Assembly: GCA_963678315.1 (NCBI GenBank)
Contig: OY782781.1
Location: forward strand, 1,536,001-1,600,000
Length of the DNA: 64,000 nt
Direction of reading: 5' to 3'
DNA from: Candidatus Cloacimonadales bacterium
Lineage (GTDB): Bacteria; Cloacimonadota; Cloacimonadia; Cloacimonadales; JAFGVF01
In this document: one piece after another, positions 5,330 to 13,127 of the stretch
How positions within the stretch are numbered: the stretch's first letter is position 1
Layout: the number at the start of each line of letters is the position of its first letter
The notes under the pieces: model-generated
Told to the model about the DNA's origin: nothing
The model's input: the letters and a program-made list of their open reading frames with translations, nothing else
Databases searched by the model: none
Position numbers and translations under genes: made by a program

Positions 5330-5445
5330 CTTTTCTCCTTTTCCCCTTGTTTATATTATAAATATTTATATCAAATTTTGTTGGTCAAGCTTTTTTTATT
5401 ATCTCGTGCTTACCATGGTCCCATTCTCAATAATCAATTATGCAC

Positions 5446-5658
5446 TTATCCGTGGCTTCCTCTTATCTCCTAATTAAATAAGCCACAAACATCCTCTTAA
5501 CAATCGGATGCTTTAGTCTCTGGGCATAAGCCTCATTCTTAAATATCTTCAACTGATTAAAGAAGGCAATCCAATCTTCTTCAGTGTAGTTTTCCAGGAT
5601 CTCTTTCTCTTTAGCTTTAAATTCTTCATTTTTCTTTATCTCTTCAGGAGACAGCTCT
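5446..5658 (-). repeat. ~200 bp diverged duplicate of the 3' end of the 6298..6945 gene
   Basis: ELSPEEIKKNEEFKAKEKE...MFVAYLIRR near-identical in ORFs 5463..5693 and 6298..6945; about 8 substitutions in the coding part. Confidence 0.92.
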
Positions 5659-5839
5659 ATTTCATTAAATAGTTTGTGTGATGATTCTCTCAAAGTTGTC
5701 TGATATTACATTCTTGTAAATAATCTAATTAATTGCATTGTGAAATGGTTGAAAAAAAACTAGACATCCTTTTATGTATACTTTCTTATGTATTTAACTA
5801 ATATAATCTTATATTAAATCTAAGAAAGGAGGTAAGCTC

Positions 5840-5995
5840 ATGGATAAGTGGGAAATCTACAAAGATAACAAGAATGAGTGGCGTTGGAGAAGAACTTCTT
5901 CTAATGGTCGTATCGTTGGTGCATCGTCTCAAGGTTATACAAATAAATCAGATTGTATCAGCAATGCTCAAAGACATGGATATACAGGCAACTAA
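5840..5995 (+). CDS. YegP/DUF1508-family small protein (51 aa; absent from ORF track)
   Basis: AAGGAGG RBS; MDKWEIYKDNKNEWRWRRTSSNGRIVGASSQGYTNKSDCISNAQRHGYTGN* fits the DUF1508 pattern. Confidence 0.85.
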   Translation: MDKWEIYKDNKNEWRWRRTSSNGRIVGASSQGYTNKSDCISNAQRHGYTGN

Positions 5996-6023
5996 TAGTT
6001 AGCTACCTGTATAAGTGATTAAC

Positions 6024-6063
6024 GCTCCAGTTTTATGTGACATCCAAAACTGGAGCTTTTTTA
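6024..6063 (+). terminator. Intrinsic terminator after DUF1508 gene
   Basis: gctccagtttt-N11-aaaactggagc followed by T-run. Confidence 0.75.
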
Positions 6064-6117
6064 TTATTTGATAAATGTCAAACAACTGTCAATTATTTTT
6101 TTTCTTATCCTCAATCC

Positions 6118-6151
6118 CCTCTTGCATAAAATCATCAATTAATGCAGGAGG
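6118..6151. repeat. Dispersed palindromic REP-like element (copy in prophage)
   Basis: cctcttgcat...atgcaggagg; related copies at 24126-24173 and 45400-45434. Confidence 0.7.
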
Positions 6152-6167
6152 TTATTCAGCATCCCCT

Positions 6168-6309
6168 TTCGTGTTCTTAGTGTTTTTCGTGGTTCAATTC
6201 TTATTGGTGAAGATTCGTGCCATTTGTGGCTATCCTTTCTTCTTCGTGTAATTAGTGCAATTCGTGGATAGTCTCTTTTTATCTGCCTTTATCCGTGCTA
6301 TCCGTGGCT
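6168..6309. repeat. Block A of 9-bp-period (WTYGTG)x3-GG repeat units
   Basis: Four ~27-31 bp units spaced ~36-39 bp; 6198-6309 closely matches 7005-7119. Confidence 0.85.
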
Positions 6310-6945
6310 TTCTTCCTCTCTCCTAATTAAATAAGCTACAAACATCCTTTTAACAATCGGATGGTTTAGCCTCTGAGCATAAGCCTCATTCTTAAATATC
6401 TTCAGCTGATTAAAGAAGGCAATCCAATCTTCTTCAGTGTAGTTTTCTAGGATCTCTTTCTCTTTAGCTTTAAATTCTTCATTCTTCTTTATCTCTTCAG
6501 GAGACAGCTCTGGCTCTTTATAAGATGTATATCTCTGCTTCTCTTTACGTTTTCTGCTATTATATTCCTGCAAATACCCCTCAAATTTAGTCCCAAACAG
6601 AGTTTTAGGCCTAAGATACCTATGTTGATCTGTTGTCAGCCACTGAGCCGATTTTACATCAATAACCTGTTTAAATTCATCAACATTAAATCCATCATTA
6701 AGTCTGGCTCTGATGAGTGCTTTCGTATCGGAGGTGGAAGCTCTATATTCTTTACCGGTTACATGGTTCAAGTAGCCAATTATCTCAAGACATTTACTCT
6801 CAAAATCCTCTTTCGGACTCACCTTCTGTGCTTTTCCATACTTCTTTAACAACCTAAGCAAGAACTGCCTTTGCTTTTGCTCTAGCAGTTCTTTACCTAT
6901 CAAGTCTTTAGCTTCTAAATAAAGCTCTCTATTATCTTTCTTCAT
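6298..6945 (-). CDS. Conserved phage C-terminal domain (Phg_2220_C) protein, replication-organiser-like
   Basis: IIGYLNHVTGKEYR..IRARLNDGF..FKQVIDVK..W..YLRPKTLFGTKFEGYLQE. Confidence 0.85.
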   Translation of the reverse strand: MKKDNRELYLEAKDLIGKELLEQKQRQFLLRLLKKYGKAQKVSPKEDFESKCLEIIGYLNHVTGKEYRASTSDTKALIRARLNDGFNVDEFKQVIDVKSAQWLTTDQHRYLRPKTLFGTKFEGYLQEYNSRKRKEKQRYTSYKEPELSPEEIKKNEEFKAKEKEILENYTEEDWIAFFNQLKIFKNEAYAQRLNHPIVKRMFVAYLIRREEESHG

Positions 6946-6960
6946 TCTCCATTATGCCTT

Positions 6961-7119
6961 TATCCGTGTTTATCTGTGCTATCCTTAGCTCTTTTTCTGC
7001 ATTCTTCTTATTAGTGTAGATTCGTGCCATTTGTGGCTATCCTTCCTTCTTCTTGGTGTAATTTGTGTAATTCGTGGATAGTCTCTTCTTATCTGCCTTT
7101 ATCCGTGCTATCTGTGGCT
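6961..7119. repeat. Block B of 9-bp-period repeat units
   Basis: Four units; direct repeat of block A, first unit matches 8315-8344. Confidence 0.85.
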
Positions 7120-7131
7120 AAATCGTCACAA

Positions 7132-7518
7132 CTAAGAAACGCTTTCATAGTAAATAGCTCTTACATGCCAGTAATTCAACAAATACTTCTCGGCTACAAT
7201 GTTTATAGCACATTTAACACTATATCCTGAACCTCTTAGTTTTCTTATTTCTTTCTTGATATACTTATTGCGTTGCAATAGCCTATTCTTACTAGCTCCA
7301 AAATTCTCAACTCTCACTCCCAACTGCTTTATCTTACGATTAGGATAAATCTTATTATGAACAGTAATCCAAGCATTCGACATCTTAACCAAAGATCTTA
7401 ACAACTTCCTATTCTCGATTTGCTCTTCTAAGAAGGCTTTTCGTAAGGCACAATCAGCTTTAATAGTATAATTACACTTTGATGCTATCTTACATTTATT
7501 CTTTAATATACAATCCAT
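7132..7518 (-). CDS. Mor/C-like transcription activator (putative)
   Basis: C-terminal RNKYIKKE..GYSV...VAEKYLLNYWHVRAIY resembles the Mor-family HTH; position at end of early operon. Confidence 0.55.
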   Translation of the reverse strand: MDCILKNKCKIASKCNYTIKADCALRKAFLEEQIENRKLLRSLVKMSNAWITVHNKIYPNRKIKQLGVRVENFGASKNRLLQRNKYIKKEIRKLRGSGYSVKCAINIVAEKYLLNYWHVRAIYYESVS

Positions 7519-7592
7519 TTTTCCTCACTAATTCCCCTCCCCAGGAGGAGTGCCATCCTAAGATGGCAGGGTGTGTCATTAACTCCTAACTC

Positions 7593-8213
7593 CTAAAGGC
7601 TTGCATAATTTACGTTAATCTTCTTCCAATCGATATATACTTTCACACCTTTGCCACGGTCTTCAGATATCTCTTCACGCTTATATACTTCGGTATAGGC
7701 TCTTTTATCTATCACTTTCATATTAGAAGTTATCAGATGAACTCCTTTTTGATATTCCTGGTCCTCAAAATCATAAGAACACAGTTTTTGTAGTTGTGAT
7801 TTTGATATTGAACCAGAAGATTTTACACTAAGAACATCTTTGAGAATAGTCTTGATTTTTCTGTTTAGATTAGGTTGAAGGTTTTCAACCCAATTAGCTA
7901 TCATTTGAATACCAGAAGAAACATTAGTATCAATTGCTACAATCTCAGCAAAACGTGTTTCAACTTTGATTTGCTCATCAAAGCTATAATCACTTGCAAA
8001 ACCATTCCAAACTTTAAGTCCTGATGCTTTAGCTTTACTATTCAAATAATTCTCAGTCAGCTTTCTCTCTTTAGCTTTTGCCTTCTCCATTTGTTCAGAG
8101 ATAGACTCTCTAATAGCCATTATTTCAGTTACATAATCATGTGCTTCTAATACTTCTTTCTTCAATAAATCTGCTCTAATCTTACCATCTTTCCCATTTA
8201 AATATCTTGCCAT
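7593..8213 (-). CDS. DUF3164-family Mu-like prophage protein
   Basis: MARYLNGKDG.., GFASDYSFDEQIKVE, KRAYTEVYKR...INVNYASL; GGAGG RBS before ATG 8213. Confidence 0.75.
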   Translation of the reverse strand: MARYLNGKDGKIRADLLKKEVLEAHDYVTEIMAIRESISEQMEKAKAKERKLTENYLNSKAKASGLKVWNGFASDYSFDEQIKVETRFAEIVAIDTNVSSGIQMIANWVENLQPNLNRKIKTILKDVLSVKSSGSISKSQLQKLCSYDFEDQEYQKGVHLITSNMKVIDKRAYTEVYKREEISEDRGKGVKVYIDWKKINVNYASL

Positions 8214-8313
8214 TTTATATTGCCTCCATTTCTTATTTTGGGTTGCATTCACCGTGTCCGGCAACTGCCTGATCTTGAATGCGATTCTTCTTAAAATTCT
8301 TCATTATCTTCCT

Positions 8314-8802
8314 TTATCCGTGTTTATCTGTGCCATCCGTGGCTATTCTCTCTTCTTTCGTGTCATTAGTGTCATTAGTGTAATTAGTGGATAAATACTT
8401 CCTCAACATCACTATAACTCCACTCTTCTGCCTGCTATCAAGTGCATTCCAATGTACTATCCCATAGCGTTTTCCTATGAACTTCCTGAATCTATCATTA
8501 CTCCATCCAAGCTCTCTTAACATGCTCCAGACAAAGTCTCCCTGCTTATCAAACTGACCAATCCCATACTTAGCTCGGTAATCCTGCATACTGGGAACGC
8601 TGGCCTCCGTGCCGGCATCAATTATGCTAAGTACCTCTTGCAATCCTCTAATACTAAGCTTCCTCAATGAATCACCATATCCCCAGCTAGCCAGATACTG
8701 ATGAAACTCCTCACTAGACCAACCTTTCTCACGCTTTACCTTTATCATGATTGTCTGTCTCAATGATTTAGCATATTGCTCTTGTTTAGCTGTCATTGCC
8801 AT
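8314..8802 (-). CDS. GemA/gp16 (DUF1018)-like regulatory protein
   Basis: GWSSEEFHQYL..GDSLRKLS...Q..VWSMLRELGW...FIGKRYGI..LD..Q.SGVIVML; Mu early-region position. Confidence 0.7.
   Translation of the reverse strand: MAMTAKQEQYAKSLRQTIMIKVKREKGWSSEEFHQYLASWGYGDSLRKLSIRGLQEVLSIIDAGTEASVPSMQDYRAKYGIGQFDKQGDFVWSMLRELGWSNDRFRKFIGKRYGIVHWNALDSRQKSGVIVMLRKYLSTNYTNDTNDTKEERIATDGTDKHG
8315..8392. repeat. Block C of 9-bp-period repeat units, translated as the GemA C-terminus
   Basis: Encodes STNYTNDTNDTKEERIATDGTDKHG*. Confidence 0.8.
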
Positions 8803-9256
8803 AGTTAAACTCCTCTTCCGATATACCTAACTCGGCTAATCTTTTTCTCTTATATTCTTCAAATTTTGGGTACTCAGTCTTATTAGCCTTTCTCAGTTGT
8901 GTATAGTTTCCTCTCTCTTCCATCCTATAAACTGTCCGAGTACATACTCCTAGTTCATCAGCCTTAGCCTGTACTTCAGCCTCTCTAGAACCTTCCTTAT
9001 ACACTTTTTTTGTGTTTTTAGTGCTTTTTGTGGTTAGCTTCTTTTTCTTTATTGCCTTTGGATATACATACCTATATAGTTTAGGAGTACATCCATCTCC
9101 AGTTCTTACGATTTTCCCTTCTTTCAGATACTTTTTGAGTACTCTTTGGCAGCTGCTTTTAGCAACCCCAGTATCTTCAGTTACCTGAACTAAACTAAAT
9201 GGTCTTCGTATCTGAAATATGTAATTTCTTATTATTTGCTCATTATTGTTTATCAC
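8786..9256 (-). CDS. HTH DNA-binding protein
   Basis: Winged-helix-like N-terminus FSLVQVTEDTGVAKSSCQRVLKKY and second HTH ADELGVCTRTVYR. Confidence 0.65.
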   Translation of the reverse strand: MINNNEQIIRNYIFQIRRPFSLVQVTEDTGVAKSSCQRVLKKYLKEGKIVRTGDGCTPKLYRYVYPKAIKKKKLTTKSTKNTKKVYKEGSREAEVQAKADELGVCTRTVYRMEERGNYTQLRKANKTEYPKFEEYKRKRLAELGISEEEFNYGNDS

Positions 9257-9332
9257 TATTCACTCTCTTCTTACTTTCTTAGTGCAACCTACTAGTTGCT
9301 TTCCTACTATTCACTCTTAATTATGAACTAAA

Positions 9333-10082
9333 TTATAGTTCGTTAGCTGCCTCTATAATATCAGATACTTCTAGTTTAGTTATACCTTTTTGCTTGCCAA
9401 TATACTCAAATTCTTTGATTATGGATTCTAATTGGTGAAGAGATCCTTTAGCCTTGTTTGCCATCATGCCATAAACATCTTTAGAAGCTGCAACTTCCAT
9501 TGATGAAACGGCTACTCCTAGCATATCAGCTAGATTTGGTACTTCAAATTGACAGAAGTTAGAACATCTATTGAAAAAGTGTGCGTTATACTTTTCTAAT
9601 CGTGCTTTTGTATCTTCTTCACCAATCATCATAATTTTTGCACCAGCAATATCTCTAAAATCTCTAATCAACTCAAGAACCTGCCACTTATGATGTTGTA
9701 TTGCTAAATTGACTTCATCAAAAATGAATACATAAGGCTCTATATCTGGACTTTGATCCCTAAGAAAACTCAACTCTCCAAATAAATCTATACAAGCCTT
9801 TGCAAGTGTTGACGATGTTCCTTTAATAGTTGTCTCATTGCCTGTTAAAGCATAGTTCAAACTTCGATATACTTCAGCTAAAAAACTTCTAGCTGTATCC
9901 ATTGTTTCAATCCTGTAATATCCCCATCCAGGTTTAGCAAAACTCTTCTTAGCAAAATGACTCTTTCCTGTTCCTGGATAACCGTATACCAATATCAGGT
10001 CTGCTCCCTTCTTGGTTAGCATCTTCTTCATTACCTTCTGCAATCGCTTAACATTTGCAGTTTCAAATAATACACTTTTCAT
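9333..10082 (-). CDS. MuB-like AAA+ transposition ATPase
   Basis: Walker A GYPGTGKS, Walker B FIFDE, directly downstream of the transposase. Confidence 0.88.
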   Translation of the reverse strand: MKSVLFETANVKRLQKVMKKMLTKKGADLILVYGYPGTGKSHFAKKSFAKPGWGYYRIETMDTARSFLAEVYRSLNYALTGNETTIKGTSSTLAKACIDLFGELSFLRDQSPDIEPYVFIFDEVNLAIQHHKWQVLELIRDFRDIAGAKIMMIGEEDTKARLEKYNAHFFNRCSNFCQFEVPNLADMLGVAVSSMEVAASKDVYGMMANKAKGSLHQLESIIKEFEYIGKQKGITKLEVSDIIEAANEL

Positions 10083-10146
10083 CTTAACTCCTTCTCTTAA
10101 CTATTGTTTCTCATTTTTAAATTTTCATTTTTCATTGCTTAATTAT

Positions 10147-12924
10147 CTACCCAATCCCTAACTTCTTAAATGCTTCTTCATATTCTCTGTTTTTATCTTC
10201 ATCAACATGCGTTTGCTTGGCTGATTCTATCATTTCATCTGTTACAACTGGCTCTTTATTAGAAGTATCTTCAACTAGCTTATTAGCTTCTGTGATAGCA
10301 TTATCTAGAATTGAATCATCAATTGTAACATCTTCAGCTTGTGCATTAATTTTAGTTCTACTTGGTTTACCCTTATGTAGATGTAGCTTAGAAGCGTGTT
10401 TTTGGTTATTTTGAATCCTCTCCTGATCATCAATTGTGTTCTCAGAAGATTCAGCTAAAGCTCTGTGCATTCCCTTAACTGATCTTACACCATCTAAAGC
10501 ACTATAAACACTTCTTCCTATCTTCTCTCTGTGTTTAGTCTCAATATAAGATGCCATATCATCACCAACTTGAAGGGCAGGATAGACTATCTTAGCTTTC
10601 TCTTCAAAAACTTCTCCAAACTCAGATGCTATAGTAACCTCTGTTATATCTCTTTCATCATAGAAATATTGAACCTGTCTATTCTGTAGAGCCATAAACA
10701 TAGGATGTGAGTAGTATATACCATTAACAAAAATCTCTCCTCGATTAACTTTAGCCATTGATGGGTAAGGAAACTTCATTATCATATCTAACTTCTCTTT
10801 ACTGGGAACGCTGGCATCCTTGCCGGCAAGCTCTTCTGCATAAGCTTCTAATGGAGACATACTCTCACCTTTGCCATTAGTTAAAACTGATCTTTTTCGG
10901 TTGTTCCAAATCTCGATAAACTGCTTTAATAGCTCTTCATATTGTTCCCAAGTTGGGATATACTTACCATATTTCTTGATTAACTTCTTATTAGTTAATT
11001 TAAGAACTTCAGGTCTCTTTTCTATTTTGTTACCTATCCATACAGGAAAGGCTTTCTCAAATTGACTTACACAGAATCCCCAAAATGGCTCTATCATCTT
11101 ACTTTCAGGGTTACCAGGTATCGTGAATGAATAACTTATCCCTAGATTTTTATATAAACCATTGTCTCCTCTAGCTATCATCTCAAGAGCCTTCTTTTTT
11201 GATGCAGTATTTCTTTTCTTACCTGCATAAAAGTGTGGAGTGTGATTAACATTCTTATAGCCAGATCCATTATCAACTCTAATCTGTGCTGGAACTCCAA
11301 AATGCTCAATCCCATCTCTAAGCGAAGTCCTAACTACATTTTGATTCTCAGCTATACATAATGCATGGCCTGTGATAACACCAGTTGCTATATCATACCA
11401 AGCTATCAGCTGTGGCCTCACTAAAAATCTTAGTGTAGGCTTGTGAGCATAAAAAGGTGAATAAATCAAGTTATTCATTGGATGACCATCACTCTCCCAG
11501 ATATCTCCAGGCATTGCATTATTAATCCTATGAACATGTGGTCTAATCGAATCCTTGTAAGCTTTCTTACCTTTAGCTCTAGCAACAGCCATAGCATCTT
11601 TTCTCGCCTCTGTGACAATATTTAACACCGTACGTGGTGATATTGGCATCTCTTGACCTACACAGGTAAACTCTTCTTCAATCAGTCTATATATCTCAGT
11701 TGATTTGATATCCCTGAAATCTACAGCTAACTTCTTAATCTTACTTTCAAGAGAACTAGAAACAACTTTCTTCCTTCCTGAAGATCCTTTCCTGTGCTCT
11801 AACAAACTAATTGGGTATTTAGTATTACCAGAATCTCTTAAAGCCTTTTCCCACTTCTTAATTGTCTTAATTGATATAGTTACTACATCAAGCTGTTTCA
11901 TAACATTAGAAAGTATTTCACGATTGTTAAGCTTTATCTCAAAATCTCTACCTGCTTTAGTTAATGATATTTTGTTAGCTTTAGCATAATCTCTAAACTT
12001 CAAGTACTCATCAACTATTGCCTTCTTATTCCAAGCTCTATTTTTCTCTTCACTTGTGTGTATCTCAAATTCTTGTTGTTCCTTAAGTAAAACTACACTC
12101 AAAGAGTTACTACTCTTCATGATCTCTGCTTGCCACTTCATCTGAACATCTTGAGTAAATCCATCAACCTTGATATAAGTCTTAAACTTGCTAACCTTGT
12201 CTGGCATGGTTACTGCAAATAACTCTTGTGAAGAAATCTTATTGTATATAGTTCTTCTTGAATATCCTGAAAGCCCAACTGCTCGATCTATCGGAATCCA
12301 CTTCAAAGAATTTTTCAGTTCCTTCTCATCAATCCACTCAGGAGTGTCCACTTTAAGAATGTCCACTTTAAGAATGTCCACTTTAGAAGTGTCCAGTTTA
12401 GCAATGTCCAGTTTATGAGATTGTTTTTCAGAATCAGAAGTGTCCAGTTTAGATAAATTTTCTTTTCTAGTTTCGTTAGATTTTGTAAATTGGACACCCT
12501 TTTTTCCAATGTCCAGTTTAGAATTATCTTTTTTAGCAATGTCCAATTTAGCTAAAGCACTATTTTTTAGCACTTTTCCTACTTTTTGGACATTACATTT
12601 AACGCTTTTTAATGTACTTTGCACAGCCGGCTGTGCAAAACCATGTCCACTTTGATGGCTTTTCTCATTTTCTGGGACAAAAAAATTAGGTTCATGAACT
12701 AAAGTGTCCAGTTTAGAAATCTCCTCTTTTGAAGAAATATTTCTCTCTTGAGAACAGCTTCCCTCAGAAGTGTCCAATTTAGAATCATACCACACAAGTA
12801 TAGTAGGACGACCAGGACCTACCTGTTCTTCTTTAGTCTTCCAGATCCCTTTCTTAATCTGCCTTCGAATAGTCTTAACTGACTTATCTAACCTGTCAGC
12901 CACTTCTTTAATTCTTAACCACAT
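10147..12924 (-). CDS. MuA-like DDE transposase
   Basis: N-terminal HTHs, WESDGH, VDNGSGY, PGNPESKMIEPFW, C-terminal GEIFVNGIYYS...YFYDERD. Confidence 0.93.
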   Translation of the reverse strand: MWLRIKEVADRLDKSVKTIRRQIKKGIWKTKEEQVGPGRPTILVWYDSKLDTSEGSCSQERNISSKEEISKLDTLVHEPNFFVPENEKSHQSGHGFAQPAVQSTLKSVKCNVQKVGKVLKNSALAKLDIAKKDNSKLDIGKKGVQFTKSNETRKENLSKLDTSDSEKQSHKLDIAKLDTSKVDILKVDILKVDTPEWIDEKELKNSLKWIPIDRAVGLSGYSRRTIYNKISSQELFAVTMPDKVSKFKTYIKVDGFTQDVQMKWQAEIMKSSNSLSVVLLKEQQEFEIHTSEEKNRAWNKKAIVDEYLKFRDYAKANKISLTKAGRDFEIKLNNREILSNVMKQLDVVTISIKTIKKWEKALRDSGNTKYPISLLEHRKGSSGRKKVVSSSLESKIKKLAVDFRDIKSTEIYRLIEEEFTCVGQEMPISPRTVLNIVTEARKDAMAVARAKGKKAYKDSIRPHVHRINNAMPGDIWESDGHPMNNLIYSPFYAHKPTLRFLVRPQLIAWYDIATGVITGHALCIAENQNVVRTSLRDGIEHFGVPAQIRVDNGSGYKNVNHTPHFYAGKKRNTASKKKALEMIARGDNGLYKNLGISYSFTIPGNPESKMIEPFWGFCVSQFEKAFPVWIGNKIEKRPEVLKLTNKKLIKKYGKYIPTWEQYEELLKQFIEIWNNRKRSVLTNGKGESMSPLEAYAEELAGKDASVPSKEKLDMIMKFPYPSMAKVNRGEIFVNGIYYSHPMFMALQNRQVQYFYDERDITEVTIASEFGEVFEEKAKIVYPALQVGDDMASYIETKHREKIGRSVYSALDGVRSVKGMHRALAESSENTIDDQERIQNNQKHASKLHLHKGKPSRTKINAQAEDVTIDDSILDNAITEANKLVEDTSNKEPVVTDEMIESAKQTHVDEDKNREYEEAFKKLGIG
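12344..12780. repeat. Array of RTGTCCANTTT motifs inside the transposase gene
   Basis: 11 direct copies (five tandem at 15-bp period), one perfect and one imperfect inverted copy. Confidence 0.9.
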
Positions 12925-13127
12925 AACTTAACCTCTTCTCTTCTGGGTACGCAATCATCCTGGTTGCCTCTTAATGGGTTGCATTCATCTTGAATGCGAT
13001 TCATCTCTTCGATTCCCCATCTAACCACTAAACCCATTGAACAAAGTAAGCAGTCCATCTTACTTATTATAAGGAGGAGGATTTGCCGTGATAGACTGCT
13101 TACAAGTATCAAAACTATACAATTCAT
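12915..13127 (-). CDS. Small hypothetical early protein
   Basis: AAGGAG RBS, overlaps transposase start; 3' part consists of hairpin repeats. Confidence 0.4.
   Translation of the reverse strand: MNCIVLILVSSLSRQILLLIISKMDCLLCSMGLVVRWGIEEMNRIQDECNPLRGNQDDCVPRREEVKLCG

Follow-up and report, generated by a model that had tools for sequence, protein, structure and literature searches.

Repetitive extragenic palindromic (REP) sequences, their hairpin-forming doublets (REPINs) and the REP-associated tyrosine transposases (RAYTs) make up the described system that comes closest to the one treated here, a family of short CAC-led repeat units in a 64,000-nt stretch (the window) of a Candidatus Cloacimonadales bacterium (contig OY782781.1, positions 1,536,001 to 1,600,000). 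Three blocks of these units lie among the early genes of a Mu-like prophage in the window, and their alignment with the host chromosome gives good support to the view that they are solo arms of a repeat family that elsewhere frames genes for GxxExxY proteins. In both systems a short intergenic repeat is present in tens to hundreds of copies, inverted copies flank a few small nuclease-type genes, the gene is far less numerous than the single units and inverted doublets that lack it, and copy number varies greatly between relatives. The unit described here differs in that it consists of three direct sub-repeats with a period of 9-10 nt and has no hairpin, and in that its partner is a PD-(D/E)XK nuclease rather than a Y1 HUH transposase. 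Furthermore, direct arrays of different unit types dominate here, and the link between gene and unit is weak across the phylum.

A small gene between inverted repeats inside transcribed units is also the layout of the 23S rRNA intervening sequences with a TIGR02436 protein. The host genome (G000, one 2.99-Mb contig with 32.8% G+C) has a single gene of this four-helix-bundle family (995,271-995,597), which is framed by inverted short-period repeats of another motif, of the TTGATAAT type, whereas the prophage blocks have neither a gene nor an inverted partner. Bacterial interspersed mosaic elements (BIMEs) and the arrays of neisserial intergenic mosaic elements (NIME) resemble the present repeats in the stacking of different short modules in variable order in intergenic DNA, but for the CAC units a specific partner gene can be named, and they extend to the genomes of phages. 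Of the marks of miniature inverted-repeat transposable elements (MITEs), inverted ends are present in the cassettes and in 21 gene-less inward-facing unit pairs; no empty site was seen at the one site compared. The end sites of the Mu transposase are paired CGAAA-type half sites about 9 bp apart; the CAC units in contrast occur chromosome-wide and flank an unrelated gene family. Binding sites of the Mu transposase were rejected as their identity because no unit lies near either expected end of the prophage (unit list for 1,500,000-1,553,000).

Among phage elements the nearest likeness is with the promoter early stem-loop (PeSL) cassettes of T4-type phages, which are reported to combine a promoter with a terminator hairpin and to form mini-circles that were shown experimentally (Arbiol et al. 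2010, PMC2839356). The likeness lies in short repeated intergenic motifs that occupy non-essential early phage regions and bracket small genes of unknown function, with close relatives differing mainly at these places. The CAC units in contrast have promoter and terminator signals no stronger than chance, form no hairpin, are shared with the host chromosome and come without demonstrated circles. By analogy, the system would appear to work most like REP/REPIN-RAYT and, within phages, most like PeSL. The present findings add two things, namely that solo arms occur in a transposable prophage as well as in viral contigs, and that the differences between sister prophages cluster at the blocks.

Repeat blocks in the early region of the prophage

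Blocks A, B and C (Table 1; coordinates are those of the window, and the blocks and early genes are read on the minus strand) contain ten units of about 30 nt. Each prophage unit comprises three, and once four, CAC-led sub-repeats at a period of 9-10 nt. An eleventh unit is found inside a helix-turn-helix (HTH) gene and a stub beyond block A. The spaced pattern CAC-N6-CAC-N6-CAC has seven matches in the window against 0.04 expected from 100 shuffles, six of them on the minus strand between 6171 and 9032. If a unit is defined by at least two CAC[AGT][AG]A cores with a spacing of 9-10 nt (a doublet or triplet), the window holds 11 of them, with four each in blocks A and B, two in block C and one in the HTH gene (9009-9032). 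Unit starts are 37-40 nt apart, and the consensus of the window units is (C)CAC-R-A-A-W-W-R x3.

The assignment of the blocks rests on a comparison with a GxxExxY cassette at 759.7 kb of the host genome. In this comparison (alignment A3) every unit of the two cassette arms has its counterpart in blocks A and B, in the same order and with the same spacing, while block C matches two units of the arms. The unit-for-unit match implies that each block equals one whole arm without a gene or an inverted partner. Since all 13 units of the prophage lie on one strand and the prophage has no GxxExxY gene, the blocks are solo arms and not complete cassettes. Their identity as solo arms of the repeat family of the GxxExxY cassettes, which is common to the host chromosome, is therefore well supported by the aligned sequences.

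Blocks A and B form a direct repeat of 115 nt with 91% identity (or, in two pieces, 93% over 73 nt and 92% over 51 nt) on either side of the Phg_2220_C gene. Block B starts 12 nt past the stop codon of the 128-aa gene, its extra unit is placed just ahead of the start of Phg_2220_C, and the stop codon of the latter is a TAG within the first unit of block A. Block C covers the last 27 codons and the stop codon of GemA, whose frame reads through the block to give a C-terminus of ...TNYTNDTNDTKEERIATDGTDKHG; the block ends at the ribosome-site-like sequence AAAGGAAG, ahead of a 23-codon mini-ORF. A repeat search reveals no nearby inverted arm pairs inside the blocks, which are thus non-palindromic, and folded as RNA they are no more stable than shuffled sequences (z -0.93, -0.87 and -1.50). 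The first-pass annotation, made from the letters of the window, had described non-palindromic repeats of one orientation at these places, some of them overlapping stop codons, with A and B as a direct repeat around Phg_2220_C and a stub further on. All of this is borne out, and the stub is real, being the end of a truncated arm.

Table 1. Positions of the repeat blocks, single units and neighbouring genes in the window.
Feature	Position	Strand	Remarks
Block C	8311..8393	-	four-CAC unit 8355-8393 and three-part unit 8311-8346
Block B	6957..7120	-	complete three-unit arm (7089-7120, 7053-7080, 7007-7040) and extra unit 6957-6982
Block A	6166..6309	-	three-unit arm (6279-6309, 6243-6270, 6200-6233) and fourth unit type 6166-6194
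Stub	5445..5457	-	first sub-repeat of a truncated arm, after the partial second copy of the Phg_2220_C 3' end
HTH-gene unit	9006..9035	-	three-part, inside the 156-aa HTH gene, translated TTKSTKNTKK
Phg_2220_C gene	6298..6945	-	bracketed by blocks B and A in direct orientation
Partial copy of the Phg_2220_C 3' end	5457..5667	-	211 nt, 93%, partner 6310-6520
DUF1508 gene	5840-5995	opposite	flanked, with block A and a hairpin, by the two copies of the Phg_2220_C 3' end
AGGAGTT heptamers and G+C-rich hairpin module	7522..7596	-	between the DUF3164 and 128-aa genes; part of the repeat mosaic of the genome
GemA-like gene	8314..8802	-	3' end runs into block C
DUF3164 gene	7593..8213	-	query for finding prophage relatives
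128-aa gene	7132..7518	-	upstream of block B
Mu-type transposase gene	10147..12924	-	with MuB-like ATPase, 9333-10082

The stretch between 5 and 15 kb of the window encodes a repressor, a Mu-type transposase, a MuB-like ATPase, an HTH protein, GemA, DUF3164, the 128-aa protein and Phg_2220_C, all on the minus strand except for the repressor. The transposase and the ATPase show that this is where the early operon of a transposable prophage lies; the genes for head, tail and lysis functions extend beyond the window on its upstream side. Block A is itself part of a 642-nt module (within 5457-6520) that lies between the two direct repeats of 211 nt (93%) of the Phg_2220_C 3' end and includes a hairpin, a strong promoter-like site (6092-6063, 11/12 matches) and the DUF1508/HVO_2922-like gene with its terminator hairpins. 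Such a layout is the pattern that would be expected if a circle had integrated or if two phage variants had undergone unequal exchange. A repeat of a different kind is found towards the N-terminal end of the transposase, a 15-bp tandem repeat (4.7 copies, 87% matches) at 12345-12415 and 12507-12552 that encodes pentapeptides of the KLD(T/I) type (SKLDT, AKLDI, KVDIL).

The unit family and its GxxExxY partner gene

The host genome holds 184 units, distributed over both strands, of which 145 are intergenic in that they fall outside a greedy open reading frame map. The doublet definition gives 300 matches in the genome as against 21 on the reversed sequence. The prophage, with 1.0% of the genome, has 13 of the 184 units; the other 171 lie elsewhere in the chromosome, and the repeats are thus not peculiar to phage early genes. 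The stricter pattern occurs 0-140 times in each of the 12 genomes of the family (controls 0-21) and at least once in 175 of 232 genomes of the phylum; these counts are clustered and related genomes are not independent, so that p-values overstate the case. In one genome of the phylum, G081, most units are near-identical and form direct arrays 60-100 nt apart, often at contig ends.

Neighbouring units of the host genome form 119 pairs, 86 of which are on the same strand and constitute direct arrays without a gene between them, while 21 face inward and 12 outward. The spacers of the inward pairs mostly measure 19-160 nt; one holds a gene, and no other cargo genes were found between inward pairs in this genome. 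The units are embedded in mosaics in which they alternate with hairpin modules and heptamer runs. The prophage units find their matches elsewhere in the genome singly (27-35 nt, 91-100%), and the linkers between them are unmatched. The genome further contains 26 near-identical copies (e.g. at 2,076,033, 1,119,475 and 818,392) of an element that spans about 190 nt, has three G+C-rich hairpins and closes with a CAC unit, beyond which there is a sharp border; the neighbouring modules vary from copy to copy, and the element has no Rfam match. At 2,075,900-2,077,500 (L001) it is part of a tandem array of at least five copies with a 260-bp period, each period made up of the 190-nt element, two CAC units and a mini ribosome-site-plus-ATG motif.

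The small genes beside unit clusters encode GxxExxY proteins (TIGR04256, Pfam PDDEXK_3), which belong to the PD-(D/E)XK nucleases. The five GxxExxY genes of the host genome, one of them frameshifted, all have units within 300 nt, which in the genome as a whole is true of 96 of 2232 genes; since a single polysaccharide gene cluster contains four of the five, they are not independent cases. Within the family, units are found within 500 nt at 25 of 30 GxxExxY loci, and at 18 of the 30 the upstream units are in sense orientation and the downstream units inverted. The gene of a full cassette encodes a nuclease of 120-130 aa and is preceded by one to three different units. Cassettes are mirror-nested, with up to three different units ahead of the gene and the same units behind it, inverted and in reverse order. 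Units usually start with TA(G/T/A)CCAC, the outer ends of a cassette read TA..CCAC and GTGG..TA, and the outermost TAG or TAA is often the stop codon of the upstream gene.

The partnership extends beyond the phylum. A scan of species genomes gave 593 GxxExxY relatives, and the best 80 of these, at 50-61% identity, come from Bacteroidota, Acidobacteriota, Planctomycetota, Chloroflexota, Verrucomicrobiota, Campylobacterota and other groups. A flanking inverted repeat that scores above all 20 shuffles is present at 43 of the 77 usable loci and mostly consists of CAC/ACG..AAT triplets (a CACGAAT-like heptamer). At least one inward-facing pair of periodic motifs occurs at 47 of 76 loci from many phyla; over these 76 loci the pairs number 117 inward against 43 outward, with only two inside genes (per 61.7 kb). 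A heptamer consensus could be derived from 79 of 106 cassette loci, the commonest being CACGAAT, CACAAAT or CACAGAT. Its fourth base appears to follow the protein column after the conserved YLK.TG, since lysine goes with A in 13 of 15 rows, compared with 12 of 64 rows with other residues. The link of such repeats to GxxExxY genes, which the first-pass annotation had mentioned for other anaerobes, thus holds in the genome, in the family and across phyla.

One cassette site, after a nucleotide-sugar dehydrogenase gene, is filled in every genome that has the orthologue, and G112 and G113 have only a 34% paralogue. GxxExxY cassettes occupy the junction between this gene and a lipoprotein gene (L042 in G000, L048 in G105, L049 in G103, L043 in G109 and L066 in G106) in two genera, but their layering differs. 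The gene framed by the outer unit type in G106 has an internal stop, and G109, G105 and G103 have an inner cassette of another unit type within remnants of the outer cassette. The junction looks like the result of nested insertion or of cargo replacement at one site.

PADLOC returned only weak Cas4-like matches, and a comparison with solved structures gave no match by sequence. One survey enters the function of the Pfam family PF13366 as 'Unknown' (Steczkiewicz et al. 2012, PMC3424549). The portions of the literature covered offered no functional account of GxxExxY; a description of a partnership between GxxExxY and repeats was likewise not found, and four unit strings were unmatched.

Related prophages and viral contigs

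The closest relative of the prophage in the species collection belongs to G112, a genome of the same family, with identities of 60% for DUF3164, 39% for Phg_2220_C, 41% for the 128-aa protein and 39% for the repressor. Its early genes abut or overlap, 20 kb of the prophage contain one weak doublet, and the G112 genome has neither a match to the strict pattern nor a GxxExxY gene. Gene order also differs, in that Phg_2220_C is followed by a 121-aa gene in G112, whereas here the 128-aa gene is followed by block B, Phg_2220_C and block A. Two other DUF3164-bearing loci of the host genome, probably further Mu-like prophages, have no units, and a search with the DUF3164 protein found no relatives in collections of viral or metagenome contigs. 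The block of head-tail adaptor, neck, terminase and portal-MuF genes (1,531,328-1,537,419 of the host genome) runs in the opposite direction to the early genes and to those for the protease and the capsid. The same layout is found in the G112 relative (L034, 2635-8619), for which reason a recent inversion of the late-gene block was rejected.

The one near-identical relative available for comparison is an 11.3-kb contig from sequencing run X2, compared as a table of contig pieces, which is collinear with 6180-12937 of the window with few base differences. In this contig the stretch 8304-8344 (41 nt of block C) is duplicated, with 237 additional letters between the copies, and block A shows 23 gap letters; about 120 other letters replace 7518-7592, and 311 other letters replace 8799-9055, the stretch around the HTH-gene unit. 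In this one pair the large differences hence sit in blocks A and C, at 7518-7592 and at 8799-9055. Two other runs, X5 and X6, gave only short contigs, and regions that these did not cover were left out of account. That the prophage acquired its units is supported by the related prophage of G112 and the two other DUF3164-bearing loci, all without units, and by the share of the units that the prophage holds for its size.

In the viral collection the pattern CCACGAAT-NN-CAC-N-AAT-NN-CAC matches 72 stretches, compared with five for the reversed pattern. A search with the profile of alignment A1, run without a positive control on a known frame, found no GxxExxY frame within 1.5 kb of these 72 loci. 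Some of the matches are coding nonamer runs or lie within one conserved gene. At least 25 of 67 distinct matches fall outside any long open frame, 21 of them solo and four with an inverted partner; the count is given in this form because automatic calls of coding and intergenic DNA are unreliable in viral contigs of high G+C. One of the contigs, G232 (27.6 kb), derives from a related Mu-like phage with tblastx matches to the transposase and to Phg_2220_C. Another, G235 (L186/L187, 9.7 kb, 39% G+C), has CAC units beside AGGAGTG heptamer runs and a hairpin module of the GGGGAATTA type, as in the host genome, and is probably a phage of a related host. Five viral loci (L180, L189, L201, L215 and L168) contain long perfect tandem runs of nonamers, such as GCCACGAAT, in open frames or in A+T-rich spacers.

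Spread of the units and competing explanations

The explanation that is held, on balance, to be the more probable one is a selfish spread of protein-recognised units into harmless intergenic slots, which in a phage supply homology for recombination. The units have multiplied in this Cloacimonadota lineage, mostly without the gene and mostly as direct arrays, and some of them have settled in intergenic gaps of the resident Mu-like prophage. It is proposed that they are binding or cutting sites of a trans-acting protein, for which the GxxExxY nuclease is the prime candidate, and that they spread as selfish DNA to harmless positions, many of them at a stop codon or immediately past one. Within a phage they may serve as stretches of homology where duplications, insertions and changes of gene order arise. 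Homologous recombination between copies could have generated the direct repeat around Phg_2220_C, the 211-nt duplication at the DUF1508 module and the insert in the X2 sister.

Several observations weigh against this explanation. To our knowledge no transposition mechanism has been described for a 125-aa nuclease, and neither an empty site nor a target duplication beyond the terminal TA was found. Whole arms are copied only within the prophage, while elsewhere single units match, and the explanation does not account for how arms form. In the phylum GxxExxY is present in 31 of 39 unit-rich genomes (at least 20 matches), the other eight being fragmented assemblies, and in 159 of 232 overall, which amounts to an odds ratio of 1.97 (p 0.13). 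Five unit-rich genomes have no GxxExxY match at an E-value of 0.01, namely G081 with 113 matches to the pattern, G195 with 53, G016 with 50, G072 with 31 and G229 with 25 (controls 0-5); as these are assemblies of 90-310 contigs, a gene flanked by repeats may be missing from the assembly. Conversely, some genomes, e.g. G023 and G134, have a GxxExxY gene but no match to the strict pattern. The covariation between protein and motif comes down to two supported independent pairs on the tree. Finally, the uniform strand of the prophage units, the A+T-rich solo units that stay intact in viral contigs with 60-70% G+C, and the units that abut stop codons could instead mean that the units have a function in the phage.

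Such a function is at the heart of the strongest alternative, a contender that is nevertheless unlikely, according to which solo units act at the RNA level as unstructured, purine- and CA-rich parts of phage operons between a stop codon and the next start. They would then assist ribosome hand-over, transcript processing or stability, or the loading of a termination factor such as Rho, and GxxExxY cassettes would carry the element so as to sit inside operons. Twelve of the 13 prophage units are co-oriented with their flanking genes, and units keep to one strand in three phage genomes. All four units of G232 are co-oriented as well, three of them 17-21 nt past a stop codon; two viral contigs of high G+C have intact units directly against TAG or TGA stops, with ribosome-site-like sequence behind them. 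Several arms terminate in AAAGG(A/C)A..ATG, and the lack of RNA structure in the blocks and the persistence of units in genomes without a GxxExxY gene fit the same picture. Orientation in the genome at large speaks otherwise, however, as 22 regions between co-directional genes are co-oriented and 18 are anti-oriented (19 and 17 without the prophage); the same tally per unit, which is clustered, comes to 66 and 35. Orientation hence does not follow the flanking genes genome-wide. In G235 two units are opposite to their co-directional flanking genes and a third lies between divergent genes, the downstream arm of full cassettes is antisense, and the G112 prophage has the same early genes without units. 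Rfam 15 has no match in the window at the gathering score (the sole Rfam match, Acido-Lenti-1, is in another repeat locus, L004). A promoter scan yielded 14 promoter-like sites where 15.8 would be expected, and of the 14 listed none falls inside a block; a terminator scan likewise showed no excess.

Slightly less credit is given to the possibility that the units are active recombination sites at which a site-specific enzyme, or recombination stimulated by nicks, moves single genes. Genes bracketed by direct units would be excised and re-inserted, in the manner of PeSL mini-circles or integron cassettes. Phg_2220_C between its direct arms, the DUF1508 module between the 211-nt repeats and the additional letters between the duplicated block C stretches of the X2 sister all have the form that such events would leave behind. 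So do G236 and G234, where two direct solo units bracket a single gene whose stop codon touches a unit. Units that keep to one strand in three phage genomes and units that abut stop codons favour this reading as well. The order of Phg_2220_C and its neighbour is reversed in G112, and G232 has its Phg_2220_C homologue upstream of the transposase gene; the prophages compared are either near-identical or very distant, so the units cannot be made responsible for the change of order. The same structures would result from ordinary homologous recombination, whatever the repeats involved, and the prevalence of direct arrays without a gene between neighbouring units is not what cassette movement predicts. 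Moreover, no bracketed gene was seen to be present in one relative and absent from another; both the X2 sister and G112 have Phg_2220_C. Of the original proposal of a protein- or RNA-binding or recombination element that mobilises single genes, what stands is a sequence-specific, oriented element tied to GxxExxY; a movement of cassettes by recombination at the units is given a low probability, and no gain or loss of a bracketed gene was seen.

Operator-like sites of a phage-encoded regulator, comparable to the oriented 'stoperator' sites of cluster A mycobacteriophages, would account for several intergenic copies in one orientation in the prophage. This is a very improbable explanation given the predominance of units outside the prophage, the same units beside GxxExxY genes in many phyla, their absence from the related prophage of G112 and the up to 140 pattern matches in relatives that have no such prophage. 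DnaA boxes, CsrA sites and the ARN tracts of Hfq, judged from sequence alone, fit only some of the unit types. Chance low complexity or repeats driven by coding (TN.TN. peptide tails), to which the two genes that read through units and the coding nonamer runs among the viral matches might point, can practically be dismissed in view of the excess over shuffled and reversed controls, the mostly intergenic position and the conservation of the unit across phyla.

These findings bear on GxxExxY (PDDEXK_3) as a very widespread family of small genes without an assigned function. In one lineage its repeats far outnumber the gene and form direct arrays, and they enter phage genomes without the gene, as seen in the Mu-like prophage, in a related Mu-like contig and in viral contigs of 35-70% G+C. 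A more speculative and rather doubtful extension holds that the unit is a portable recombination site common to phages and hosts. A GxxExxY-type nuclease would nick or pair units, genes between direct units would be excised, exchanged or captured, and phages with solo units would be both beneficiaries and vehicles between phyla; if true, this would explain why GxxExxY proteins are 50-61% identical across unrelated phyla. If the units serve phage expression instead, they would represent a new type of intergenic signal common to unrelated phages. If they are nuclease sites, phages would be a route by which they pass between phyla as well as a place where gene order is reshaped.

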